Positions 13,444 through 56,930 are shown, numbered from the stretch's first letter. The stretch: 64,000 nt of DNA from Candidatus Bathyarchaeota archaeon (GCA_052246995.1 JBQPWD010000001.1:128001-192000), one strand, 5' to 3'. Numbers and translations are program-made. The notes: a model not told the origin generated them from the letters alone.

Positions 13444-13674
13444 TTGGTTGAAATTGAAAAGCTTAAAAAGTTTATTGATGACGAAATTAAGCCAGCTTTA
13501 GAAATGGAAGGAGGATTTATAGAGCTTATTGATGTTAAAGAGGGGGTTGTTTTAGTTAGGTTAGGCGGTGCTTGTGCAGGTTGTCCTATGAGCCAATTTA
13601 CACTAAAAAACTTTGTTGAGGCACTTATCAAAGAAAACTTTCCAGACGTTAAAGAGGTAGTAACCTTAGCGTAA
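13444..13674 (+). CDS. NifU/NfuA C-terminal domain Fe-S carrier
   Basis: Motifs IKPALEMEGG and LGGACAGCPMS. Confidence 0.9.
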   Translation: MVEIEKLKKFIDDEIKPALEMEGGFIELIDVKEGVVLVRLGGACAGCPMSQFTLKNFVEALIKENFPDVKEVVTLA

Positions 13675-13686
13675 ATTCTTATTCAT

Positions 13687-15159
13687 CTACCTTGTTTGAA
13701 CTTGGCATACAAGCTTTTCCCATAACTCTTTATTTCTTATGCATCCTGGGTCTGGGGCTAGATAATCTCCAAAGTATCCGTAAGCTCTTGCACGACATCC
13801 TCCACAAACATATTTAAATTTACAAACTCCGCAATTTGGTTTTAAAACCTCCCTATTACGTAACTCTTGGAAAACTTTGTTTTTTTCCCATATTTCTTCA
13901 AAGTTATCCTTTAAGATCTCACCAACTTTGAGTGGGAAAAATACGCAAGGAGTTATGCTTCCATCATGCTCAATAGCACAGTAAAACCTCCCAGCTCCGC
14001 ATCCACCAATAAACTCGCTTAAATCTACGAGTTGTCCGTATAAATGTGGATTGTAAAAGTGTGTTGGAATAATTAGTTCTTCCTTGGCCTTTTTTTCAAG
14101 TTTTTCCTCAGTTTGTAATGCAACCCTAGCATACTGGGGTGCTGTTGAAAGAACATCTGGTTTGATGTTTGACCTAAGCTTAAACCATAAACTTTCAAGA
14201 AGTTTTTCTCTTTCCTCTGGAGAGAGGTCATTTTCAATTATAAACCTTCCTCTACCAGTTGGAACAAAGTTGTACATCATCCACCAATCAACATCGAGTT
14301 TACCGCACAAGTTAACAATCTCTAAGATTTCCAAATAGTTTAGTTTTGTCGCTGTAGTTGCAACTTCAACAAATATTCCCTCCTCAACACAATTTTTAAT
14401 TCCGTTAATAGCTTTCTCGAAAACACCTGGAACGCCACGGAAGTTTTCATGAGTTTCGGGTTTAGCACCATCTAAACTTATTTGAACATAACCAATTCCC
14501 TCATGCTTTAACCTTTTAACAGTATCCTTTGACAGCAAAGTTCCGTTTGTTGCTACAGCTGTAAAAATCCCATAGCTGTTAGCTCTTTCTAAAACTTGGA
14601 AAAAATCTTTTCTTATTAATGGTTCTCCTCCTGAAAATGCTAGAATAGTTACGCCTGCATCTGCAAGCTTATCAACAACCTTTAAAGCTTCATTAGTGTT
14701 AAGCTCACCTATACTTGGTAAACCTGCCGAGGCATAGCAATGTTTACAGTGAAGATTGCATAACTGAGTAAAATTCCAAACAACAAGAAATGGTGCTCCT
14801 GGAACAAAGGGTCTTTTTACGCCGAACCTTGAAATTCCTTGTAAAACATTTATAAGACCTTTTCTCCAGTAAACATTCTCAAACTTTTCCTTAATTTTTA
14901 ACTCGTTAAGTCCAAAAGCCTCTCCTCCCTTTTTGATAGTCCACCTAACAAGAGGGTAAACGATTTTTGAACATGTCCAGCATGCCTTACTCCTCTTGTT
15001 GGCAAAAAGTTCTAATGCAACTTCAACCCTGCTTTTACCATCTTTCTTACATTTAGAGGAGAATTTTTTTAAAAGGTATCTTATAGATTTTCTGTTTATG
15101 GTTGACTTTAAAACTTCAATCGACTGGACTGTAGTATCTTCAACTTTTTCTTTAGCCAA
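13687..15159 (-). CDS. Radical SAM protein with SPASM domain (PqqE/NirJ-like)
   Basis: CNLHCKHC and SGGEP motifs, SPASM cysteines CGAG...PC...CGVCKFKYVCGGCR...C, and an N-terminal Cys-containing extension. Confidence 0.92.
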   Translation of the reverse strand: MAKEKVEDTTVQSIEVLKSTINRKSIRYLLKKFSSKCKKDGKSRVEVALELFANKRSKACWTCSKIVYPLVRWTIKKGGEAFGLNELKIKEKFENVYWRKGLINVLQGISRFGVKRPFVPGAPFLVVWNFTQLCNLHCKHCYASAGLPSIGELNTNEALKVVDKLADAGVTILAFSGGEPLIRKDFFQVLERANSYGIFTAVATNGTLLSKDTVKRLKHEGIGYVQISLDGAKPETHENFRGVPGVFEKAINGIKNCVEEGIFVEVATTATKLNYLEILEIVNLCGKLDVDWWMMYNFVPTGRGRFIIENDLSPEEREKLLESLWFKLRSNIKPDVLSTAPQYARVALQTEEKLEKKAKEELIIPTHFYNPHLYGQLVDLSEFIGGCGAGRFYCAIEHDGSITPCVFFPLKVGEILKDNFEEIWEKNKVFQELRNREVLKPNCGVCKFKYVCGGCRARAYGYFGDYLAPDPGCIRNKELWEKLVCQVQTR

Positions 15160-15225
15160 AATTTAAGCCACCTAGAGTTATATTAACTATTGGCGTTGTT
15201 TTTCAGGTGGGAGGATACTCCTTAA

Positions 15226-15240
15226 CGTAAAATATATAAT
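15226..15240 (+). promoter_or_regulatory. BRE/TATA promoter of the C/D-box sRNA candidate
   Basis: CGTAAAATATATAAT lies about 25-30 nt upstream of the box C candidate. Confidence 0.45.
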
Positions 15241-15262
15241 GTTTCGTTGTATTTTACTTTTT

Positions 15263-15336
15263 GGCGATGACGAAAGCTGGTATTACAGAGTAAGCTTACC
15301 TAACCTTATGATGAAGAATGAAACCAGGACAGAGCT
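15263..15336 (+). ncRNA. C/D-box guide sRNA candidate
   Basis: Box C-like ATGACGA (15267), D'-like CAGA (15286), C' ATGATGA (15308) and D-like CAGA (15330). The first guide, GCTGGTATTA, is antisense to the conserved archaeal 16S sequence TAATACCAGC. Confidence 0.65.
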
Positions 15337-15337
15337 T

Positions 15338-15868
15338 TTACTCTTTTTCTTCGAGGCGTGCCAGTGTAAAAAGTAGGTCTGCAACTCTGTTAAGGTAACA
15401 CCCTAACTCTAAATTTTTAACTTTTCCATCGTGAATGAGTTTATGAACTTTTCTTTCAGCTCTTCTAACAATTGTACGTGCAAAATCTAAAGTTGCTGAA
15501 ACAGGGTTCTTTCCTGGGATGACAAAGTGTTTTCCTATCTCCACTTTTTCTAGAAGTTTTTCCAGAATTTCTTCTACTTCCTCAACATGCCTTCTTGTTA
15601 ACTTAAATGGGGCTTTATCGTATGCTTCGAGAGGAGTTGAGAGTTCGGAACATATGTCATATAAAGTTTTCTGAATCTTAAGTATAGTTTCCACAACCTC
15701 TCCATTTTTTGACAATGCTTTTGCTAAACCTAAAACTGATACTGCTTCATCTATTGTGCCGTATGCTTCAACTCTCTCATCATATTTGGGTACCCTTTTA
15801 CCATCCAGTAAACTTGTATATCCATGATCTCCAGCCTTAGAAAATTTAAAAAGTTTACCTTCAACCAT
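15338..15868 (-). CDS. pduO: PduO-type ATP:cob(I)alamin adenosyltransferase
   Basis: Motifs GDHGYTSL, RVEAYGTIDE, ARTIVRRAER and YLNRVADLLF. Confidence 0.93.
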   Translation of the reverse strand: MVEGKLFKFSKAGDHGYTSLLDGKRVPKYDERVEAYGTIDEAVSVLGLAKALSKNGEVVETILKIQKTLYDICSELSTPLEAYDKAPFKLTRRHVEEVEEILEKLLEKVEIGKHFVIPGKNPVSATLDFARTIVRRAERKVHKLIHDGKVKNLELGCYLNRVADLLFTLARLEEKE

Positions 15869-45789: not shown

Positions 45790-47172
45790 TTAACCTTTTA
45801 GAATCTCCTCTTCTGACGGAGGCTGTTTTATTAAATCATGTTTCATTAACAACTCCATTGATTCTCTAGCATTCTTAATTATTACCGAAGCCCGTTCGTA
45901 CAGTTCTTGTCTACTAAGCTTAATCCTTGCTATACCCTGTTCTATTGAGCTTAATGCGCATGCAACCGCTACTCTCGGAAAAACTTCCCATTCCTCCATC
46001 CTTGGCAAAATGTACTTTTCATGTATTCCTCTTTCTTCAGCAAATCTTGCAAGTTCCTGGGCGGCAGCTATGCATGTGTCATCTGTCACGGTTTTTGCTC
46101 TTACATCTAAGATTCCGCGGAAAATTGCTGGAAACCCTAGGCTGTTATTTACTTGGTTGTGGAAGTCACTTCTTCCCGTGGCTACGATTTTAGCGCCTGC
46201 CTCCTCCGCCTCCCACGGCCATATTTCAGGTATCGGGTTGGCGCAGGCAAACACTATAGAATCATCAGCCATACTCTCCACCCACTCCTTCTTTATTGTT
46301 CCAGGTCCTGGTTTTGAGGCTGCGACAACCGCATCTACACCTTTGAAAGCCTCTGCTATGTCTCCCATCCTATTTTCTGCGTTTGTTTTCTGAGCGAGGT
46401 CATATTTCCACGGGTCTTCTTCCTTTATTATGTCTTTTCGGTTGCGATGTACTATTCCCTTACTGTCAACAATTATTATGTTTTTCGGGTTAATTCCCCA
46501 CCTTATTAGGATGTATGCTGTTCTGATGTTGGCTGCGCCTGCTCCGAATAGAGTTATAAGGCTTTCTTTAGGGTTTTTTCCAACTATTTTGAATGCGTTT
46601 ATCAAACCTGCAAGAACGACTGTTGCTGTTCCCTGCTGGTCGTCATGCCATACTGGAATTTGCAGCCGTTCTCTAGTCTTTTCTAAAATATAGAAGCATT
46701 TCGGTTTTTCTATATCTTCTAGGTTTATTCCGCCGAAGGAAGGTTCAATAACCTCACAAACCCTTGCTATTTCTTCCAGATTTTTAGTTTTTAGACAAAT
46801 CGGGAAAGCATCCACACCACCCAAATACTTAAAAAGCAAGGCCTTTCCTTCCATAACTGGCATAGCTGCCTCAGGACCTATATCTCCTAGGCCCAGCACA
46901 CGTGTCCCGTCTGATACGACAGCAACATGATTCCATCGGCTTGTTAACTCAAAGGATTTATCAGTGTTTGCTTGAATTTCTTTGCATGGTGTTGCAACGC
47001 CAGGGGTATACCATATTGCAAAGTCTTCATAGCTTCTTATAACACATTTCGGCATAATTTGAATCTTTCCCTCGTAAAACTTGTGCATTGGAGTAGCCAG
47101 CTGGGACGGTTTCTTTGCCTTAGCTAAAAGTTCCTCCACCGTTGGCTTTCCTTTCCAGCTTGCTTGAGGCAT
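45790..47172 (-). CDS. NAD(P)-dependent malic enzyme
   Basis: Motifs YTPGVA, VLGLGDIG, MEGKALLF, INLEDI, HDDQQGTA, ANPIPE and ATGRSD. Confidence 0.95.
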   Translation of the reverse strand: MPQASWKGKPTVEELLAKAKKPSQLATPMHKFYEGKIQIMPKCVIRSYEDFAIWYTPGVATPCKEIQANTDKSFELTSRWNHVAVVSDGTRVLGLGDIGPEAAMPVMEGKALLFKYLGGVDAFPICLKTKNLEEIARVCEVIEPSFGGINLEDIEKPKCFYILEKTRERLQIPVWHDDQQGTATVVLAGLINAFKIVGKNPKESLITLFGAGAANIRTAYILIRWGINPKNIIIVDSKGIVHRNRKDIIKEEDPWKYDLAQKTNAENRMGDIAEAFKGVDAVVAASKPGPGTIKKEWVESMADDSIVFACANPIPEIWPWEAEEAGAKIVATGRSDFHNQVNNSLGFPAIFRGILDVRAKTVTDDTCIAAAQELARFAEERGIHEKYILPRMEEWEVFPRVAVACALSSIEQGIARIKLSRQELYERASVIIKNARESMELLMKHDLIKQPPSEEEILKG

Positions 47173-50080: not shown

Positions 50081-50503
50081 TTGCGGAAAATGGCTGCATG
50101 GTTTGAACTTGGTATACTCCACTTAACTCTAGGAATGGTTATAACTTTCCTCTTTTCAATTATACTAGCCCTAGTAGTTCAAGCTACACGCTTATTTGTT
50201 GGAGTAGGTGAAAAGATAAATTCGGTCAGAAAGGCGGATAAAATGTTTAAAACATACAAGAATGAGATACTGGTTGGTGTTTTATCTTCAATACTTTACA
50301 ATTCCGAAATCCTACGAGAAGGGAAGGTTGCACCTTTTAAATCAACTTCTGTTAAGGCTAGGCCTTATAATTGTTGGAGCCTAGCTGGAAGGTTTGAGTA
50401 TACTGATTTTATAAGTTATGCTCGTAACTGGACTAACAGTTTAGGCTGGGCTTCACTATCAAAAGCTAAATTCTATAAGAGAAGGTGTAAACCATGCGCG
50501 TAA
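50081..50503 (+). CDS. Membrane-anchored gamma/delta-like subunit of a Na+-transporting decarboxylase
   Basis: Single N-terminal TM and a C-terminal WSLAGR motif. First gene of the decarboxylase operon. Confidence 0.62.
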   Translation: MRKMAAWFELGILHLTLGMVITFLFSIILALVVQATRLFVGVGEKINSVRKADKMFKTYKNEILVGVLSSILYNSEILREGKVAPFKSTSVKARPYNCWSLAGRFEYTDFISYARNWTNSLGWASLSKAKFYKRRCKPCA

Positions 50504-50988
50504 AAAGAAAAGCTAGAATTGTTTTTGAAGGCAAACCCTATGAGGTTGAAATATCCTTAGAGAATGTTCAGCAAAACCCCGTTTTGATGGAAGTTTTTCT
50601 GAACGGGAAAACCTATAAGGTTGTTGTCTCAAGAGGAGAGATTAGCCCGGACACGCATTCCTTGTTAACTCCTGCCAAGACAATGGTAGTTGAAGAGAAG
50701 AAAGTTGAGGCATCAAAACCTCCAACTTTAAAAGTGTCAGAAGAAAAGCCTAGACGTGAAGCTCTCAGAGGGTTTGTTGTTGAAAGTCCGCTACCAGGTA
50801 AGATTGTAAATGTTAAGGTTTCTCCTGGTGAAAGAGTTAATGCTGGCGACCCGCTTCTTGTTATAGATTCAATGAAGATGGAAAACGTTATCCCATCACC
50901 TAAGACGGGGGTTATCCTGGAAGTTAAGGTTTCGGTTGGACAAAGCGTACAAACAGGCACACCCTTAATAGTAATATCTGATGAGTAA
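50494..50988 (+). CDS. Biotin carboxyl carrier protein 1
   Basis: SPLPGKIV motif and biotinylation motif DSMKMEN. Confidence 0.92.
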   Translation: MRVKRKARIVFEGKPYEVEISLENVQQNPVLMEVFLNGKTYKVVVSRGEISPDTHSLLTPAKTMVVEEKKVEASKPPTLKVSEEKPRREALRGFVVESPLPGKIVNVKVSPGERVNAGDPLLVIDSMKMENVIPSPKTGVILEVKVSVGQSVQTGTPLIVISDE

Positions 50989-51026
50989 ATTGCTTCAATT
51001 AAAAAATTGTAGTTCTTGGTGAAAAA

Positions 51027-52169
51027 ATGGGATTTGAAATCGGGTTTTTGCATGAATTTTTTAAATATATAACAACTTACACAGCTTTCAACGTGATAAC
51101 CTTAGGACAAATCATCATGATGGTTTTTGCAATAACTTTGATATATCTTGCAGTAGCAAAGGAATATGAACCCTTTGTTCTTTTACCAATAGGGATTGGC
51201 TGTCTACTTTCAAACGTACCCTTAGGGCATCTCCCAGAAGTCGGAGGATTATTTTACCTAATTCGTAAATATCTGATTGATACGGAAATTCTGCCGGTAA
51301 TTGTGTTTATATGTATCGGTGCAATGACCGACTTTGGGCCTCTTCTTTCAAGGCCTTTACCGAGCTTTATTATGGCTGCTGGTGCACAGCTTGGAATATT
51401 TATAACCTTAATATTATGCTTAGTTGTTGGTTACACCCCAAGAGAAGCTGCAGCTATAGGCATAATTGGAAGTGCTGATGGTCCTACAACAATATTCACG
51501 TGTGCTAAGCTTGCGCCTGAACTGCTTGGGCCTGTTGCCGCATCTTGCTATCTGTATATGGCAATGGTACCAATAATTCAACCTCCAATAGTTTACGCGC
51601 TTACAACAAAAAAGGAAAGAGCAACCTACATGCCTCCAAAAATACGTGAAGTATCTAAGATTGAGAGAATACTTTTCCCCGTTTTCTGTCTTCTGATAGG
51701 ATGTTTACTTGTCCCTCATGCTACCCCCCTGATAGGGGCAATAGCAATAGGAAACCTTCTCAGAGAATCAGGCGTGGTTGATAGACTCGCAAAAGCCGCA
51801 GAAAATGAACTTTTAAACATTGCAACAATACTTTTAGGTTTAGGTGTAGGTGGATCTTTAACCGCGGAGGTTTTTCTAAAGCCGGAAGTGTTGCTTGTTT
51901 TTGTATTTGGTGTTGTAGGATTTGCTGGTGGAACTGTTGGTGGACTTTTACTAGGAAAATTACTCTATATAGCATCTAATGGTAAGGTTAACCCAATAAT
52001 AGGTATTGCTGGAGTTTCAGCTGTCCCCATGACCGCTAGAGTTAGTCAATATCTAGCTTCAAAAGATAACCCATCAAACTTTGTATTAATGCATGCTATG
52101 GGTCCAAATATTGGTGGTGTTATAGCTTCAGCAATTGCTGCCGGATACTTGATTAGCGTTTTTGGATAA
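51027..52169 (+). CDS. Na+-translocating decarboxylase beta subunit (OadB/MmdB/GcdB family)
   Basis: Motifs GAMTDFGPL, IIGSADGPT (catalytic Asp), YMAMVPIIQPP, GVSAVP and HAMGPN. Confidence 0.96.
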   Translation: MGFEIGFLHEFFKYITTYTAFNVITLGQIIMMVFAITLIYLAVAKEYEPFVLLPIGIGCLLSNVPLGHLPEVGGLFYLIRKYLIDTEILPVIVFICIGAMTDFGPLLSRPLPSFIMAAGAQLGIFITLILCLVVGYTPREAAAIGIIGSADGPTTIFTCAKLAPELLGPVAASCYLYMAMVPIIQPPIVYALTTKKERATYMPPKIREVSKIERILFPVFCLLIGCLLVPHATPLIGAIAIGNLLRESGVVDRLAKAAENELLNIATILLGLGVGGSLTAEVFLKPEVLLVFVFGVVGFAGGTVGGLLLGKLLYIASNGKVNPIIGIAGVSAVPMTARVSQYLASKDNPSNFVLMHAMGPNIGGVIASAIAAGYLISVFG

Positions 52170-52283
52170 GCTTTGTTAACCTCCCCTAACAAACTGTCTT
52201 TCTCTTGTAGCATCATTGGTTAACCAGTAAATTTATTACGTTCTTCAAGTTTATCCTTACCATAAACAGTTGGAGGTTAAAAT

Positions 52284-53879
52284 TTGAGCGGAAAAGGAAG
52301 TGAAGATAGAGAAGTAAAAGAAAAGTTGTTAACCATGCTTAGTGAGAGAAAAAAGAAGATTGTAGAAATGGGTGGAAGTAAAGCTATTGAAAGACAGCAT
52401 AGTCTTGGTAAGCTTACTGCTAGAGAAAGAATTGAGCTTCTACTTGACAAGGGAAGTTTTGTTGAAATAGGCATGTTTGTCAAGCATAGAGGAAAAGAGT
52501 TTGGGTTAGATAAAAGAGAAATTCCATCAGATGGTGTTGTTACAGGGTTTGGTAAAATTAACGGTAGAAAGGTGTATATAGCGTCTCAGGATTTTACAAG
52601 CGTTGGTGGAACCCTTGGTGAGATGCATGCGAGAAAGATATGTGAAGTTTTAGATAGAGCGGCAAGGGAAGGTTGCCCAGTAATAATCATAAACGATTCT
52701 GGTGGTGCAAGAATTCAGGAAGGTGTTGATGCTTTATCAGGTTACGGTCAAATATTCTACAGAAATACAAGATATTCCGGAGTTATTCCGCAAATTTGTG
52801 CAATTATTGGTCCATGTGCAGGTGGAGCTGTATACTCTCCAGCATTAATGGACTTCATATTCATGGTTGAAGGTATAAGTTATGCCTTTATTACAGGTCC
52901 AAGAGTAATTAAAGAGGTTATAGGTGAGGAAGTAAGTGAAATGGAGCTTGGCGGCGCAACAGTACAACAACAGAAATCTGGTGTTTGCCATAGGGTTGAG
53001 AAAAGCGAAGAAGAATGTTTTAAGAACATTAGAAGACTTCTGAGCTATCTTCCATCAAACAACCTTGAAGATCCACCAAGAGTTGATACTGGAGACGACC
53101 CAAATAGAATTGATGAAGGGCTCTTTGATGTTGTTCCGGCAGACCCAGCGAGACCATACGATATGTATGAAATTATTAAAAGAGTTTTTGATGTACCATT
53201 AGAAGGTGAGGAGGAAAACTTTTTTGATATATTGCCAATGTTTGCTCCAAACATTATAACGTGCTTTGCACGTTTAAACGGCTACTCTGTAGGTATAATT
53301 GCCAACCAACCGAAGTTTAAAGCTGGCTGCTTAGATATAGATGCATCAGATAAAGCTTCAAGGTTTATACGTTTTTGCAATGCATTCAACATACCTCTAA
53401 TAAACCTGGTTGATGTTCCAGGATATCTACCGGGAACGGAGCAGGAATGGGGTGGAATTATCAGACATGGAGCAAAAATGCTTTATGCATACTCTGAGGC
53501 GACAGTACCTAAGATAACCCTCATTATTCGCAAAGCTTATGGTGGCTCATACTTGGCTATGTGTAGCAAAGACCTTGGAGCAGATACAGTTTTAGCTTGG
53601 CCTACAACTGAACTTGCAGTTATGGGTCCTGAGGGGGCTGCCCAAATAATATTCAGAGATGAAATTGAAAAAGCACCAGATCCCAAAAAAGCTTTGGTTG
53701 AAAAAATTAAGCTTTACCGTGAAACATTCGCAAACCCGTGGAGAGCAGCAGAAAATCTACATATTGATGATGTTATAGATCCAGCTGAAACCAGGCCGAG
53801 ACTTATTAAGGCGTTGGAGCAAGCTTTAACCAAGCGTGACCAGCTTCCTCCAAAAAAGCATGGAATTATGCCGGTGTAA
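52284..53879 (+). CDS. Acyl-CoA carboxyltransferase (MmdA/PccB/transcarboxylase 12S-like)
   Basis: Motifs GKLTARERI, DSGGARIQEG, GPCAGGAVYSPA, RKAYGGSY and KKHGIMP. Confidence 0.95.
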   Translation: MSGKGSEDREVKEKLLTMLSERKKKIVEMGGSKAIERQHSLGKLTARERIELLLDKGSFVEIGMFVKHRGKEFGLDKREIPSDGVVTGFGKINGRKVYIASQDFTSVGGTLGEMHARKICEVLDRAAREGCPVIIINDSGGARIQEGVDALSGYGQIFYRNTRYSGVIPQICAIIGPCAGGAVYSPALMDFIFMVEGISYAFITGPRVIKEVIGEEVSEMELGGATVQQQKSGVCHRVEKSEEECFKNIRRLLSYLPSNNLEDPPRVDTGDDPNRIDEGLFDVVPADPARPYDMYEIIKRVFDVPLEGEEENFFDILPMFAPNIITCFARLNGYSVGIIANQPKFKAGCLDIDASDKASRFIRFCNAFNIPLINLVDVPGYLPGTEQEWGGIIRHGAKMLYAYSEATVPKITLIIRKAYGGSYLAMCSKDLGADTVLAWPTTELAVMGPEGAAQIIFRDEIEKAPDPKKALVEKIKLYRETFANPWRAAENLHIDDVIDPAETRPRLIKALEQALTKRDQLPPKKHGIMPV

Positions 53880-53887
53880 GGTAAAAA

Positions 53888-54331
53888 TTGTCAACAGAAC
53901 TAGAAGTTTCAAAAGAAGAAGCAGCAGTTATCTCCGCAGCTTTACTTGCATACTTAGGTAAACCTCCAGCTATTATTACACCAGCATTTACAGGCACCTC
54001 AAAAGAGGATGTTGAAAAAATAATCAAAGATTTTTATGTAAGGTTTAAGAAAGAACTGCTTGAGGAGTTAGAAGGTAGATTTAAAAAAATTGAAGACAGG
54101 TTTAACAATGTTGAAAAAAAGGTTAGTGCTCTCAAAGCAAGACTTGAAAAAGCCGTTGAAGAAGCCAAAATTGTAAAAAAGGCGGAAGTTGCAACAGTTA
54201 AGTCTTCATGGAGTCTTCCTTCAAGATACATGGGGCTTGATAGAAATCTTCTAAGATACGTTTCAAAATCTTCTTCCTTCTGGAGTTTTGTCAGTAAAAT
54301 TGAAAAGCAGGTTTATCAAGCTAGAATATAA
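53888..54331 (+). CDS. Soluble delta/epsilon-like carboxylase adaptor with coiled coil
   Basis: EEAAVISAALLAY helix, a central heptad-rich segment, and SSWSLPSR and SFWSFVSK motifs. No TM segment. Confidence 0.6.
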   Translation: MSTELEVSKEEAAVISAALLAYLGKPPAIITPAFTGTSKEDVEKIIKDFYVRFKKELLEELEGRFKKIEDRFNNVEKKVSALKARLEKAVEEAKIVKKAEVATVKSSWSLPSRYMGLDRNLLRYVSKSSSFWSFVSKIEKQVYQARI

Positions 54332-54368
54332 GGTTTAAACTAGTAAATTTCATGGTGGAGAGTAGTAA

Positions 54369-55850
54369 TTGGTTCAGATTCATGAATTAATCTTTAGGGA
54401 TGCTCACCAATCACTACTTGCAACAAGGATGAGAACGGAAGACATGTTACCAATAGCACCACTAATAGACCAAGTTGGCTTCTTTTCTTTTGAAGTTTGG
54501 GGTGGCGCAACATTTGATTCATGCCTAAGATTTTTGGCTGAAGATCCTTGGGAGAGGCTTAGAAGATTAAAGGAAGCAATGCCTAACACTCCAATGCAGA
54601 TGCTTGAAAGAGCAATGAACATTGTAGCTTATAGCAATTTTCCGGATGATATTGTAATCAAGTTTATAGAACTAGCCTACAAAAATGGTTGCGATTACTT
54701 TAGAATATTTGATGCTGTAAACGACCTAAGGAATATGGAGACCCCAATAAAAACTGTTAAGAGAATAGGTGCTCATGCTCAAGGATGTTTATGCTACACT
54801 ATAAGCCCTATACATACTGTGGACTACTATGTTGAAAACTTTAAAAAACTTGAGAAGATGGGCTGCGACTCGTTATGTATTAAAGATATGGCTGGAATAA
54901 TTTCTCCCAAACGAGCATATGACATTATATGCCGATGTAAGGAGGAGGGAATAAAGGTACCAATAGATCTTCACTCACATACAAGTAGCGGTATGACTAT
55001 GATGAGTTATATGAGTGCATGCGATGCTGGGGTTGACATAATTGATTGTGCTATTTCAGCTATATCATGGGGAACAGGTCATCCTCCAACAGAATCCGTA
55101 GTTGCGGCATTACAGGGAACTCCCTATGATCCAGGGTACGACATGGAGCTTTTGATGGAGTGTAGAAAGTATTTTTTAAAGGTCTGGGAAAAGTATGCAC
55201 ATTTACATAGAGATGAAGCAAGAATAGCCGATCCCTCAGTTACAATGCACCAGATTCCTGGAGGTATGATGACTAACCTCATAGTTCAGCTTGAGCAACA
55301 AGGTGCAATAGATAGACTACCTGAAGTTTTAGTTGAAACTGCAAGAGTGCAAAGAGATTTTGGATGGCCTCCGCTGGTTACACCAACATCCCAGATTGTT
55401 GGAACTCAAGCTGTTTTAAATGTGCTTTTTGGCAGGTATAAAAGGGTTACAAAAGAAACCGTAGAATATGTTCGGGGAATGTACGGAAAACCTCCTGGAG
55501 AAATTTCTAAAGAAGTTTATGAGGCTATCCTAGGTAAGGATTGGCAGGATAAAATTATTACATGTAGACCTGCGGACCTGCTTAAACCAATGTATAAGAA
55601 GTGTAAGGAAGAGTTGGAGAGTAAAGGTTTTTCACCTAGAGAGGAAGACGTAATTTCCTACGCTATTTATCCACTACAGACCGAAAAGTTTCTGCGGGGT
55701 GAAGCTAAACCTGAGTTTACATCCGATGAGCTTCCACTAGTAACCGAGTTAAAAGGTAGAAGATACCTGATTAAGTATGCTGGTGAACAGTATGAAGTTG
55801 CAGTTAGGAAGCTGATAAGCCAAGAAAAGGAGAAGGCGAAGAAGGGGTGA
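54369..55850 (+). CDS. Pyruvate/oxaloacetate carboxyltransferase (OadA/PycB/transcarboxylase 5S-like) without a fused biotinyl domain
   Basis: Motifs FRDAHQSL, WGGATFD, IKDMAG, HSH, HQIPGGM and PLVTPTSQIVG. Confidence 0.94.
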   Translation: MVQIHELIFRDAHQSLLATRMRTEDMLPIAPLIDQVGFFSFEVWGGATFDSCLRFLAEDPWERLRRLKEAMPNTPMQMLERAMNIVAYSNFPDDIVIKFIELAYKNGCDYFRIFDAVNDLRNMETPIKTVKRIGAHAQGCLCYTISPIHTVDYYVENFKKLEKMGCDSLCIKDMAGIISPKRAYDIICRCKEEGIKVPIDLHSHTSSGMTMMSYMSACDAGVDIIDCAISAISWGTGHPPTESVVAALQGTPYDPGYDMELLMECRKYFLKVWEKYAHLHRDEARIADPSVTMHQIPGGMMTNLIVQLEQQGAIDRLPEVLVETARVQRDFGWPPLVTPTSQIVGTQAVLNVLFGRYKRVTKETVEYVRGMYGKPPGEISKEVYEAILGKDWQDKIITCRPADLLKPMYKKCKEELESKGFSPREEDVISYAIYPLQTEKFLRGEAKPEFTSDELPLVTELKGRRYLIKYAGEQYEVAVRKLISQEKEKAKKG

Positions 55851-55856
55851 CGGAAA

Positions 55857-56324
55857 ATAGGCTTAGGGAAGAGGAAGTTTAAGCTTCTCTCAGGCTTAAA
55901 GGAGTATACTGTTGAAGTTGAGGAGGCTGACAGTAAAGGTGAAGAGGTTAAGCTTCCTTCTCAAGTCGTTGACGAAATAAACCTTATCATAGGAAGGGAT
56001 AGTTATAGTTTTAAAGTGCAGGAGGTTTTAGAACACCTACCCGCTTCCACTACAACCTTAACAGTTGAGGCTGCTAAAATTAAACCCGAGGAAAAGGTTG
56101 AAGTTGTTGAGGGAACACCTGTTAAAGCTCCTATGCGTGGAACAATAGTAAAAATTCATGTTAAAGTTGGTGATAAGGTAAGTAAAGGTCAACCTGTCTT
56201 TGCATTGGAAGCTATGAAAATGGAAAACATAATAGAGGCCCCGGTTGATGGTATAGTTAAACAAATTTATGTTTCAATTGGAAAATCTGTTGCAACAGGT
56301 GAAGTTTTAGCTGTAATAGGATAA
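55857..56324 (+). CDS. Biotin carboxyl carrier protein 2 (probable ATA start)
   Basis: APMRGTIV and EAMKMEN motifs. The frame is open from 55851, reading GLGKRKFKLLSGLKEYTVEVEE upstream of the called GTG at 56016. Confidence 0.85.
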   Translation: MGLGKRKFKLLSGLKEYTVEVEEADSKGEEVKLPSQVVDEINLIIGRDSYSFKVQEVLEHLPASTTTLTVEAAKIKPEEKVEVVEGTPVKAPMRGTIVKIHVKVGDKVSKGQPVFALEAMKMENIIEAPVDGIVKQIYVSIGKSVATGEVLAVIG

Positions 56325-56352: not shown

Positions 56353-56562
56353 GTGTTAAGTTTAATGTTAAATTTAGAAAGTTTAAGGTTTTATTGCCGT
56401 AGGTGTAAAAAACTTGTACCTGTATATGAAGGGTATAGAGAGGAGAAAGTTTTCCCTGAATTAAAACCACAATTTAACATTGTAACATGGTGTTGTAAGG
56501 AATGTCACTCACCAATAATAGAGGTTTCAGAGTTTAGTAAGGAAAAAATCGGAGGAGCGTGA
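56353..56562 (+). CDS. Small zinc-finger protein
   Basis: CRRC...CKEC. Its stop overlaps the next start (GTGA). Confidence 0.7.
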   Translation: MLSLMLNLESLRFYCRRCKKLVPVYEGYREEKVFPELKPQFNIVTWCCKECHSPIIEVSEFSKEKIGGA

Positions 56563-56930
56563 GTTTCATGCCTGAAAGAATAATCCAAAGGTCAAGAGGT
56601 TTCGCACCTGACATCTACTTTATCCTAACCTTCGACACGAAAAAACAGTTCAACGTTAAAAAGGGATGTAAAGTTGAATGTACGCTTGTAAAAGCTTTAG
56701 ATTCTAGTGGAAATGTTGTTCAGGAGCTAAATCGTAAGGTTATCTGCGAAGTTAAGGTTAGGGATGGGTGGATTCATGTTCCTCCTAACATAATTCAGGA
56801 GTTAAATCTTCCTGGAAGAGAGTACTACGAAATAATCGTTGAAAAACTTGTCTCTCCCAGTGGAGTCGAAGTTGAAATTTACCCTGGCACCATGGTTGAG
56901 AAAGAAATAAAAATACCTATTAAAAAGTAG
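56559..56930 (+). CDS. Hypothetical beta-rich protein
   Basis: GGAGGAG SD and translational coupling to the upstream ORF. No family recognised. Confidence 0.72.
   Translation: MSFMPERIIQRSRGFAPDIYFILTFDTKKQFNVKKGCKVECTLVKALDSSGNVVQELNRKVICEVKVRDGWIHVPPNIIQELNLPGREYYEIIVEKLVSPSGVEVEIYPGTMVEKEIKIPIKK

Follow-up and report, generated by a model that had tools for sequence, protein, structure and literature searches.

A bathyarchaeal gene cluster that joins a sodium-pump module to two carboxyltransferases and two biotin carriers

How might an archaeon use a gene cluster that encodes one decarboxylation-driven sodium pump, two carboxyltransferases of different type and two biotin carriers, and no biotin carboxylase? 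Such a cluster lies at positions 50081-56324 of a stretch of 64,000 nucleotides (the window, by which the whole of that stretch is meant) from an uncultured hot-spring archaeon, a metagenome-assembled Bathyarchaeia genome related to Hecatellales (Candidatus Bathyarchaeota archaeon, GCA_052246995.1, JBQPWD010000001.1:128001-192000). The genome of the window (G000), with the cluster on its contig C1, comprises 1.53 Mb in 17 contigs and is rated 100 % complete. A first reading of the DNA (the original prediction) had proposed seven co-oriented open reading frames (ORFs) and had interpreted them as a hybrid complex. All seven are present at the positions it gave; the composite is real and recurs in other genomes, a single 12S-type carboxyltransferase serves all of its users, and motifs in the fifth protein, p5, argue for a physical link between the 12S-type and the 5S-type enzyme. 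We give about an even chance to the reading that this is a branched carboxyl-handling system with the single 12S as its hub, in which a Na+ pump of the methylmalonyl-CoA decarboxylase (Mmd) type is combined with a transcarboxylase-like branch.

Gene content and copy number can be read directly from the genome, as can conservation, the intact catalytic residues and the distribution of motifs described below. Genome-wide, OAD_beta, Carboxyl_trans (12S) and PYC_OADA (5S) occur in one copy each, and the two strong biotin carriers both lie within the cluster. The lack of a biotin carboxylase, first noted for the window, extends to the whole of this complete genome, with no match to Biotin_carb_C or to Biotin_carb_N (the controls were positive in 13 of 14 genomes). 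Since just one Carboxyl_trans protein is encoded here and in each of the hybrid genomes G001, G006 and G007, the single 12S must serve every biotin-dependent route. BirA, methylmalonyl-CoA mutase and epimerase, for which the original prediction had proposed a search, are all encoded, BirA next to a BioY-like gene and the mutase at two loci; mutase and epimerase together provide for the substrate of an Mmd-type enzyme. The genome further encodes succinyl-CoA synthetase and an FrdAB-like pair, in which a succinate dehydrogenase/fumarate reductase flavoprotein is followed by an iron-sulfur/CCG-type subunit of 527 amino acids. On the other hand, no GTP-dependent phosphoenolpyruvate (PEP) carboxykinase (PEPCK_GTP), no archaeal or bacterial PEP carboxylase and no PEPCK_ATP match above cut-off was found in G000, and the hybrid genomes tested (G000, G001, G006 and G007) all lack PEPCK_GTP, archaeal PEP carboxylase and a PEPCK_ATP match above cut-off. 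Five family members without a 5S gene differ in this respect: three of them, G002, G003 and G004, which have a beta subunit, encode at least one PEP carboxykinase or PEP carboxylase, and a fourth, G005, has a biotin carboxylase. This contrast is no more than a hint of oxaloacetate supply by way of the 5S.

The pump module opens with p1 (50081-50503, on the plus strand like the whole cluster; 140 amino acids, alternative start ATG 50090), a putative delta/OadG-like membrane anchor with an N-terminal hydrophobic stretch. Its residues 6-43 match TIGR01195 (oadG_fam) weakly (E 5.8e-4, 20.4 bits, cut-off 36.05), a weak match that recurs in six of six p1 orthologues, and the match to Pfam OAD_gamma has an E-value of 0.1; p1 keeps the place of delta beside BCCP and beta in every related cluster and carries the string WSLAGR at residue 103 of the frame. 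BCCP1 (50494-50988, 164 amino acids) is the biotin carrier of the pump module, with a Biotin_lipoyl match at E 3e-20, the biotinylation site SMKM and an N-terminal hairpin extension. The beta subunit (51027-52169, 380 amino acids), a carboxybiotin decarboxylase and Na+ channel by family, scores 452 bits against OAD_beta (PF03977) and 431 bits against TIGR01109 (cut-off 190.6), and aligns with Salmonella OadB (6IVA) at E 2e-100 and 340 bits. Both the GSADGPT and the GPN string described earlier are visible in its translation. Residues E48, D151, R253, N260, S331 and N361 align with E40, D203, R304, N311, S382 and N412 of OadB, which are essential and three of which bind Na+ according to the part of PMC7274780 that was available; the structural residues Y229, N373 and G377 are also kept. 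The beta subunit thus belongs to the OAD_beta family and has the Na+-binding and essential residues of a Na+-translocating biotin decarboxylase. Together with its BCCP it forms the constant core of the Bathyarchaeia beta loci examined.

The second half of the cluster comprises 12S, p5, 5S and BCCP2, which in the window are separated by gaps of 8, 37 and 6 nucleotides. The 12S-type acyl-CoA carboxyltransferase (52284-53879, 531 amino acids; MmdA / PccB / 12S family) scores 635 bits against Carboxyl_trans and 834.9 bits against TIGR01117 (mmdA), under the cut-off of 998.8; its relatives of known structure, 1VRG, 1X0U and 1ON3, are matched at E 1e-178 to 1e-195, and it is about equally near to PccB, a putative MmdA and 12S structures. 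The 5S/OadA/PycB-type pyruvate-oxaloacetate carboxyltransferase (54369-55850, 493 amino acids) has PYC_OADA and HMGL-like domains and no fused biotin domain. Among NCBIfam models it matches the PycB domain model NF006761 best (689 bits, cut-off 402) and reaches neither TIGR01108 (oadA; 626 bits, cut-off 756.5) nor the 5S model NF008984 (539 bits, cut-off 827). It is about equally close to PycB (5KS8), OadA (2NX9, E 8e-135) and 5S (1RQB), and the strings RDAHQS, KDMAG and HxH, which we take to hold the metal ligands, are kept in the alignments with all three. BCCP2 (55857-56324, about 155 amino acids) is the second biotin carrier, with an AMKM biotin domain (Biotin_lipoyl, E 2e-21) that follows an N-terminal extension of two hairpins.

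According to the favoured reading, the mutase and epimerase, whose genes lie outside the cluster, would turn succinyl-CoA into (S)-methylmalonyl-CoA, which would give its carboxyl group to biotin at the 12S. Carboxybiotin on BCCP1, held at the pump by p1, would be decarboxylated by the single beta subunit with export of Na+, as in an Mmd-type pump. BCCP2, held by p5 together with the 5S at the same 12S, would carry the carboxyl group to pyruvate and yield oxaloacetate, as in a transcarboxylase. This second route would supply C4 acids to a cell that has no pyruvate carboxylase, PEP carboxylase or PEP carboxykinase, and would close the succinate-propionate cycle. As the 5S seems to descend from the alpha subunits of Oad pumps (see below), oxaloacetate probably feeds beta as well. 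The direction of flux in this scheme is one that we infer.

Is the cluster an isolated curiosity? Among 151 Bathyarchaeia genomes, 24 have a beta subunit above cut-off, 16 a 5S-type gene and 20 a biotin carboxylase. Half of the 16 genomes with a 5S-type gene (G000, G001, G006, G007, G009, G011, G096 and G110) have a beta subunit and no carboxylase, six have a carboxylase and no beta, two have neither (G073, G117), and none has both. The parts of the hybrid occur in four gene arrangements and with three beta types. At Bathyarchaeia loci we find BCCP-beta beside 12S (Mmd type, 6 loci); BCCP, a short p5, 5S and beta (Oad type); 12S-5S-BCCP with no beta nearby, often accompanied by a mutase, and in certain genomes by biotin carboxylase, epimerase and BirA as well; and the full hybrid. 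The latter is present in 6 of the 151 genomes, all of the family of the window (G000, G001, G006, G007, G009 and G011). A separate Mmd-type locus with its own 12S exists in G110 in addition to a 12S-5S-BCCP module.

A seventh hybrid, G294 from another family of the phylum, was found with a p5 profile, through a full-length copy. This p5 agrees from end to end with an NCBI protein of 'Candidatus Nezhaarchaeales archaeon', save for how the start codon is read. The genome has one beta and no biotin carboxylase, and its 12S and 5S are 80 % and 75 % identical to those of the window. On its contig, delta-BCCP1-beta is followed by a divergent fumarate reductase-like pair, five ORFs, 12S, p5, 5S, BCCP2 and a homologue of orf123, the last gene of the cassette (see below), and then by a B12-binding subunit, mutase, epimerase and the beta and alpha subunits of succinyl-CoA synthetase. 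This context places the hybrid system in the succinate-propionate pathway. A metagenome scan with the 5S alignment yielded 80 loci, many of them on short contigs and perhaps without very near relatives of the window; none of these adds a case of beta together with 12S. A contig titled Thermoplasmatota archaeon (L034) carries at its very end a 5S and a BCCP2 that are 92 % and 80 % identical to those of the window; this is probably a further hybrid, possibly mis-binned. Two nearly complete genomes of the family of the window, G002 (L110) and G003 (L111), have a BCCP-beta pair and neither Carboxyl_trans nor PYC_OADA genome-wide.

In all seven hybrid genomes, 12S-p5-5S-BCCP2 forms a tight co-directional block, and beta and delta are adjacent to this cassette or within about 9 kb of it. 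The two halves have evolved differently. In other genera, 12S is 84-86 % and 5S 84-90 % identical to the window (74-76 % for the neighbouring GAPDH), whereas identity of beta drops to 51-52 % in G006 and G009 (genus g6) and to 34-35 % in G011 and G007, and that of delta to 24-30 %. The beta module is collinear with the cassette in the window and in G001, divergent in G006 and G009, and again collinear, with a different beta type, in G011 and G007. Divergence of beta next to stable 12S and 5S indicates that the pump module was exchanged, and yet it was kept beside the cassette, which argues for a functional link. In G011 a gene of the CitMHS transporter family lies between beta and 12S (L027, 6802-8097), which hints at uptake of di- or tricarboxylates.

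The protein that may tie the two halves together is p5 (53888-54331, 147 amino acids), a lineage-restricted candidate adaptor in which a conserved N-terminal helix (EEAAVISAALLAYLGKP) and a coiled coil are combined with a W-x-L-x-x-R motif. It belongs to no Pfam or NCBIfam family (relaxed thresholds gave coiled-coil noise only), a protein atlas search gave no usable match, and a word-indexed search found only 6 relatives. A profile search of 1.84 billion representatives gave about 13 full-length long forms and 4 short ones, the remainder of the 88 matches being coiled-coil. All p5 forms share the N-terminal helix (consensus EEAAV.SAA..AYL.KP) and the coiled coil; in the long forms W-[SV]-L-[AT]-G-R-x-E is present in addition, once or twice. 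Full-length p5 occurs in 6 of the 151 Bathyarchaeia genomes, which are exactly the six hybrids, and in G294. Short forms of 74-82 amino acids, with helix and coiled coil and no W-motif, are encoded directly upstream of 5S in 8 Oad-type loci, which have no 12S in the locus stretch examined. In 12S-5S modules without beta, on the other hand, both p5 elements are found as a C-terminal tail of the 5S itself.

A regular-expression scan near the anchor genes for W-x-L-A-G-R (the W-motif) gave a distribution that follows the 12S. In hybrids the motif is present in delta in 7 of 7 genomes and in p5 in 7 of 7; it occurs in 4 of 6 Mmd-type loci, and in 17 of 20 12S-5S loci without beta it stands at the C-terminus of the 5S frame. 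Small ORFs and 5S tails of Oad-type loci have none (0/9), the one match there lying inside an unrelated frame of 559 amino acids. We infer that the W-motif is a peptide by which partner modules dock on 12S, and that p5 serves to hold the 5S/BCCP2 module, of Oad descent, at 12S. The motif (SLWKLAGR...) also ends the biotin carboxylase frames of 12S-5S clusters at four loci (L126, 4718-6265; L159, 4841-6382; L029, 14178-14660; L157, 3-716), which suggests a common 12S docking peptide in archaeal biotin enzymes. The L029 frame is part of a PCC-alpha-like gene of G020 (13669-15481) with biotin carboxylase, BT and biotin domains, split over three frames, which could be a pseudogene or reflect assembly frameshifts. 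Complex prediction with a single 12S chain, BCCP2 and p5 gave a score of 0.02 for p5 as the partner, which weighs neither way on binding.

Several observations weigh against the favoured reading. In a 5S tree of 63 rows (quick IQ-TREE with SH-aLRT support), the 5S proteins of the six Bathyarchaeia hybrids group together (support 100), with seven beta-adjacent, Oad-type 5S proteins as their sister group (joint support 100); sixteen 12S-adjacent 5S proteins lie far from them in a clade of their own (support 100). Descent of the hybrid 5S therefore points to an alpha subunit of a pump and not to a transcarboxylase subunit; the hybrid seems to have arisen by the joining of an Oad-type alpha module to an Mmd-type pump, and not by descent from the common 12S-5S module. 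The contrast in PEP carboxylase and PEP carboxykinase stems from nine related and thus non-independent genomes, and a malic enzyme about 3 kb upstream of the cluster (45790-47172, minus strand; named from reading the sequence) could be a source of C4 acids without any transcarboxylation. The W-motif is missing in 2 of 6 Mmd-type loci and in 3 of 20 12S-5S loci without beta, and is found in 1 clear and 1 atypical case among 6 beta-only loci. The original prediction had called p5 a soluble delta-like subunit: the two proteins do share two short motifs, but alignment does not bear out the likeness (nothing by BLASTP, hhalign probability 7 %), nor did the p5 profile search find delta or 5S tails at E <= 0.001. 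No statistical homology was found between p5, delta and the 5S tails, and the p5 link rests on short motifs. As to expression, contigs from an RNA-library run of another study (X5) cover delta/BCCP1, beta, 12S, p5-5S and 5S; they are a weak hint, as carry-over of DNA is possible, and stretches that the run leaves uncovered carry no weight.

The main rival explanation is that of a Na+ pump with two inputs and nothing else: an Mmd set (delta, BCCP1, 12S) and a split Oad alpha set (5S, BCCP2, p5) would both feed one beta subunit, and no relevant transfer of carboxyl groups between substrates would take place. We consider this possible, if doubtful. The position of the hybrid 5S as sister to the seven beta-adjacent proteins is the main argument for it; moreover, Oad-type loci already hold a separate BCCP and a short p5-like gene, the genome has one beta only, and both the CitMHS transporter of L027, which fits catabolism of C4-C6 acids, and the nearby malic enzyme are in line with it. 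It leaves unexplained that p5 acquired the W-motif precisely in those places where a 12S occurs, and that the standard C3-carboxylating enzymes, present in 5S-less relatives, are all missing from the hybrids. In the transcarboxylase as well as in Oad and Mmd, both carboxyltransferase half-reactions are reversible, so that exchange would be hard to avoid in such a pump if the carriers reach both sites.

Operation mainly in reverse, as a carboxylase that uses a Na+ gradient to fix CO2 or bicarbonate onto pyruvate and/or propionyl-CoA, would serve makers of acetyl-CoA by the Wood-Ljungdahl route or oxidisers of propionate. Both Oad and Mmd are reported to run in reverse (Dimroth and Hilpert 1984, cited in PMC13147460), and PMC9635834 portrays Hecatellales as mixotrophs that use the Wood-Ljungdahl pathway and have ion translocation of the Mrp/Mbh type. 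Biotin carboxylase, PEP carboxylase and PEP carboxykinase are all missing from what was found in the genome, as this reading would have it. It would, however, need a large Na+ gradient. Helix 2 of the ATP synthase c subunit (G000 C1:31892-32251, L135) reads FIEAIAIY, the ion-binding Glu being followed by Ala and not by Ser/Thr, and by the motif rule for such subunits this suggests coupling to H+; a Na+ gradient would then need conversion by antiporters. A reverse carboxylase needs neither two carboxyltransferases per cassette nor a 12S-docking motif on p5, and transcarboxylation would give the same product with the gradient unspent, which makes this mode improbable as the principal one. Still less probable is a standard Mmd pump with an unrelated soluble enzyme beside it, 5S, BCCP2 and p5 being neighbours for the sake of regulation only. 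Separate transcription units for beta module and cassette in G294 and genus g6 would suit that arrangement, but the 12S-p5-5S-BCCP2 block stays tight in 7 of 7 hybrid genomes, and a 5S and its carrier cannot turn over unless a second biotin-directed partner is at hand, a part that only 12S and beta can play in this genome. The outcome that the original prediction had set against its own claim, an ordinary PycAB (PycB here, PycA encoded elsewhere) next to a standard Mmd pump, we regard as very nearly dismissed. The PycB model NF006761 is indeed the best NCBIfam match of the 5S (689 bits), and close relatives of the 5S in Thermoplasmatota and Methanothrix adjoin a biotin carboxylase; against this stand the complete genome with neither Biotin_carb_C nor Biotin_carb_N, and G001, G006, G007, G009, G011 and G294, which have no biotin carboxylase either. 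The claim of a hybrid thus holds on this point.

The cluster can be compared with several known systems. With the Mmd pumps of Veillonella parvula (MmdABCDE) and Propionigenium modestum (MmdABCD) the cluster shares a 12S-type alpha subunit, a separate carrier, beta, a putative OadG-like anchor, a small extra gene right after alpha and the context of the methylmalonyl-CoA pathway. The epsilon subunit of Mmd is similar to delta. In contrast to these pumps, the cluster adds 5S and a second carrier, has the p5 of 147 amino acids in place of the short epsilon, and its 12S stays under the mmdA cut-off (834.9 vs 998.8 bits). The subunits of Mmd are described in PMC11575231 and PMC8085960, both available in part. 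With the Oad pump (OadABG of Klebsiella, Vibrio and Salmonella; 6IVA) it shares a beta with the six essential residues and a 5S near OadA (2NX9). It differs from Oad in that alpha is split into carboxyltransferase and carrier, encoded by separate genes in all relatives, that the 5S remains under the oadA cut-off, that a 12S is part of the set, and that the anchor matches the OadG family weakly.

The transcarboxylase of Propionibacterium (12S, 5S, 1.3S; structural relatives 1ON3 for 12S and 1RQB for 5S) likewise combines 12S and 5S with a small carrier that has an N-terminal extension, and no biotin carboxylase; in the window, too, 12S, 5S and small carrier are encoded together without one. Here, unlike in transcarboxylase, a membrane beta and an anchor are part of the set, so that it is not a soluble enzyme free of membrane subunits, and the 5S lies below the equivalog cut-off and outside the clade of 12S-adjacent 5S proteins. 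In the mmc cluster of Pelotomaculum (mmcH alpha, mmcI epsilon, mmcJ gamma, mmcL 5S), a small protein is encoded after 12S, according to the available part of PMC8892533. The 12S-5S-BCCP modules of Bathyarchaeia (G020, G073, G077, G110, G117 and 15 of 80 metagenome loci) have the same gene order and the W-motif, often with a mutase next to them; in these modules, however, the motifs are located in the C-terminal tail of a 5S of 504-514 amino acids, p5 is missing, and beta is absent or encoded elsewhere. A biotin carboxylase accompanies 4 of the 15 metagenome loci as well as G020 and G077, and none is found in the hybrid. The split Oad clusters of Bathyarchaeia (L035-L038, L137, L138, L179) share with the hybrid a separate carrier, a short p5-like gene, beta, and a 5S of 486 amino acids that ends in the same hairpin; they differ from it by the lack of a 12S in the locus and of the W-motif in p5, and no delta-like anchor was seen in them. 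The two-locus Mmd of Xylanibacter ruminicola also has two carrier genes, one by beta and one by alpha, and an ORF of 50 amino acids after mmdA; it is bacterial, and the part of its description available in PMC11575231 names no 5S-type enzyme.

The remark in the original prediction that it knew of no characterised archaeal example needs qualification, since simple clusters of the Oad type and of the Mmd type are common in Bathyarchaeia. Reportedly, the split Oad of Archaeoglobus fulgidus was expressed in part by Dahinden and Dimroth in 2004. All parts of the cluster come from known families. No account of their combination, of the shared 12S, of p5 as an adaptor or of the docking motif turned up in the main texts searched, and the genomes compared were archaeal. 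The main text of the Hecatellales paper (PMC9635834) contains none of the terms decarboxylase, propion-, methylmalonyl and transcarboxylase.

The start of BCCP2 had to be revised. It had been placed at GTG 56016, giving 102 amino acids; this codon is internal, and the true protein is about 155 amino acids long, starting near 55857. The frame is open from 55851 and is the same as that of 5S, with the single TGA at 55848-55850 between them. The 53 codons upstream of 56016 are conserved (80 % identity over residues 3-157 with a genome of the same genus) and are under purifying selection, as their dN/dS against that genome is 0.14 (20 synonymous and 21 non-synonymous differences). In four relatives the BCCP2 start codon (ATG or GTG) shares bases with the 5S stop and is read in a different frame, and in the genome of the same genus it is a GTG four codons past TAG, the counterpart of which in the window is one base out of frame. 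No canonical in-frame start exists in the window ahead of 56016; ATA 55857, 6 nucleotides behind GGGGTGA, is the only nearby in-frame candidate. Initiation at ATA, re-initiation and frameshifting are all possible. An assembly frameshift is not favoured: contigs from two runs of one study, probably the source of the genome, span the junction of 5S and BCCP2 free of gaps, and neither for these nor for a run of another study with coverage of the bin is an indel listed there. Fusion of 5S and BCCP2 by read-through of TGA is not favoured either, in view of the TAG with in-frame GTG in the genome of the same genus and the overlapping starts in another frame elsewhere. The structure model of BCCP2 is confident for the biotin domain, with pLDDT <50 in the N-terminal part; the N-terminal extension resembles that of BCCP1.

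Two further genes follow BCCP2 on the same strand. Small protein orf69 (56353-56562), with a CxxC...CxxC pattern, lies after BCCP2 in Bathyarchaeia hybrids, with synteny in L024-L028, 62-89 % identity and a sub-threshold match to DUF6487. The last gene of the cassette, orf123 (56559-56930), follows BCCP2 in 5 of the 6 other hybrid genomes (G001, G009, G011, G007 and G294, in the latter with 45 % identity); no full-length copy is listed for G006. It belongs to no Pfam or NCBIfam family, relaxed thresholds included. Its model (pLDDT 81) has an internally duplicated beta-alpha-beta fold, and Foldseek found nothing at E <= 0.001, the best match being 2GLW (PhS018 of Pyrococcus horikoshii) at E 0.011. 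It could be a regulator or a further subunit. Between the malic enzyme and the cluster lie Sir2-like, HIT-like and GAPDH genes, named from reading their sequences, and GAPDH adjoins the cluster also in G001, G006 and G009. The second mutase locus (G000 C1:34754-44425) comprises MeaB-like, mutase, B12-subunit and thiolase-like genes and ORFs of 153, 495 and 510 amino acids, beside BirA and the BioY-like gene; apart from mutase and BirA, these names again come from reading the sequences.

Sodium pumps driven by decarboxylation and transcarboxylase are treated as alternatives for the same step of propionate metabolism in the available parts of PMC11575231 and PMC8085960. If the favoured reading is true, a cell could choose between conservation of energy and conservation of carbon for each carboxyl group, and the synthesis of C4 acids without pyruvate carboxylase, PEP carboxylase or PEP carboxykinase would be explained in these Bathyarchaeia and in the Nezhaarchaeales-like archaeon. 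The W-motif and p5 provide concrete handles on it, as docking peptide and adaptor. A bolder form of the favoured reading, which we deem unlikely, is that the 12S hexamer is a docking hub with W-x-L-A-G-R sites shared by delta (leading to beta) and p5 (leading to 5S/BCCP2) in one megacomplex. Were this so, each carboxyl group of methylmalonyl-CoA would be partitioned between Na+ export and oxaloacetate synthesis, and a Na+ gradient could drive the formation of oxaloacetate from CO2 in archaea that lack every known C3-carboxylase. The W-peptide would then also recruit biotin carboxylase in related archaea, and would be a general modular plug of archaeal biotin enzymes.

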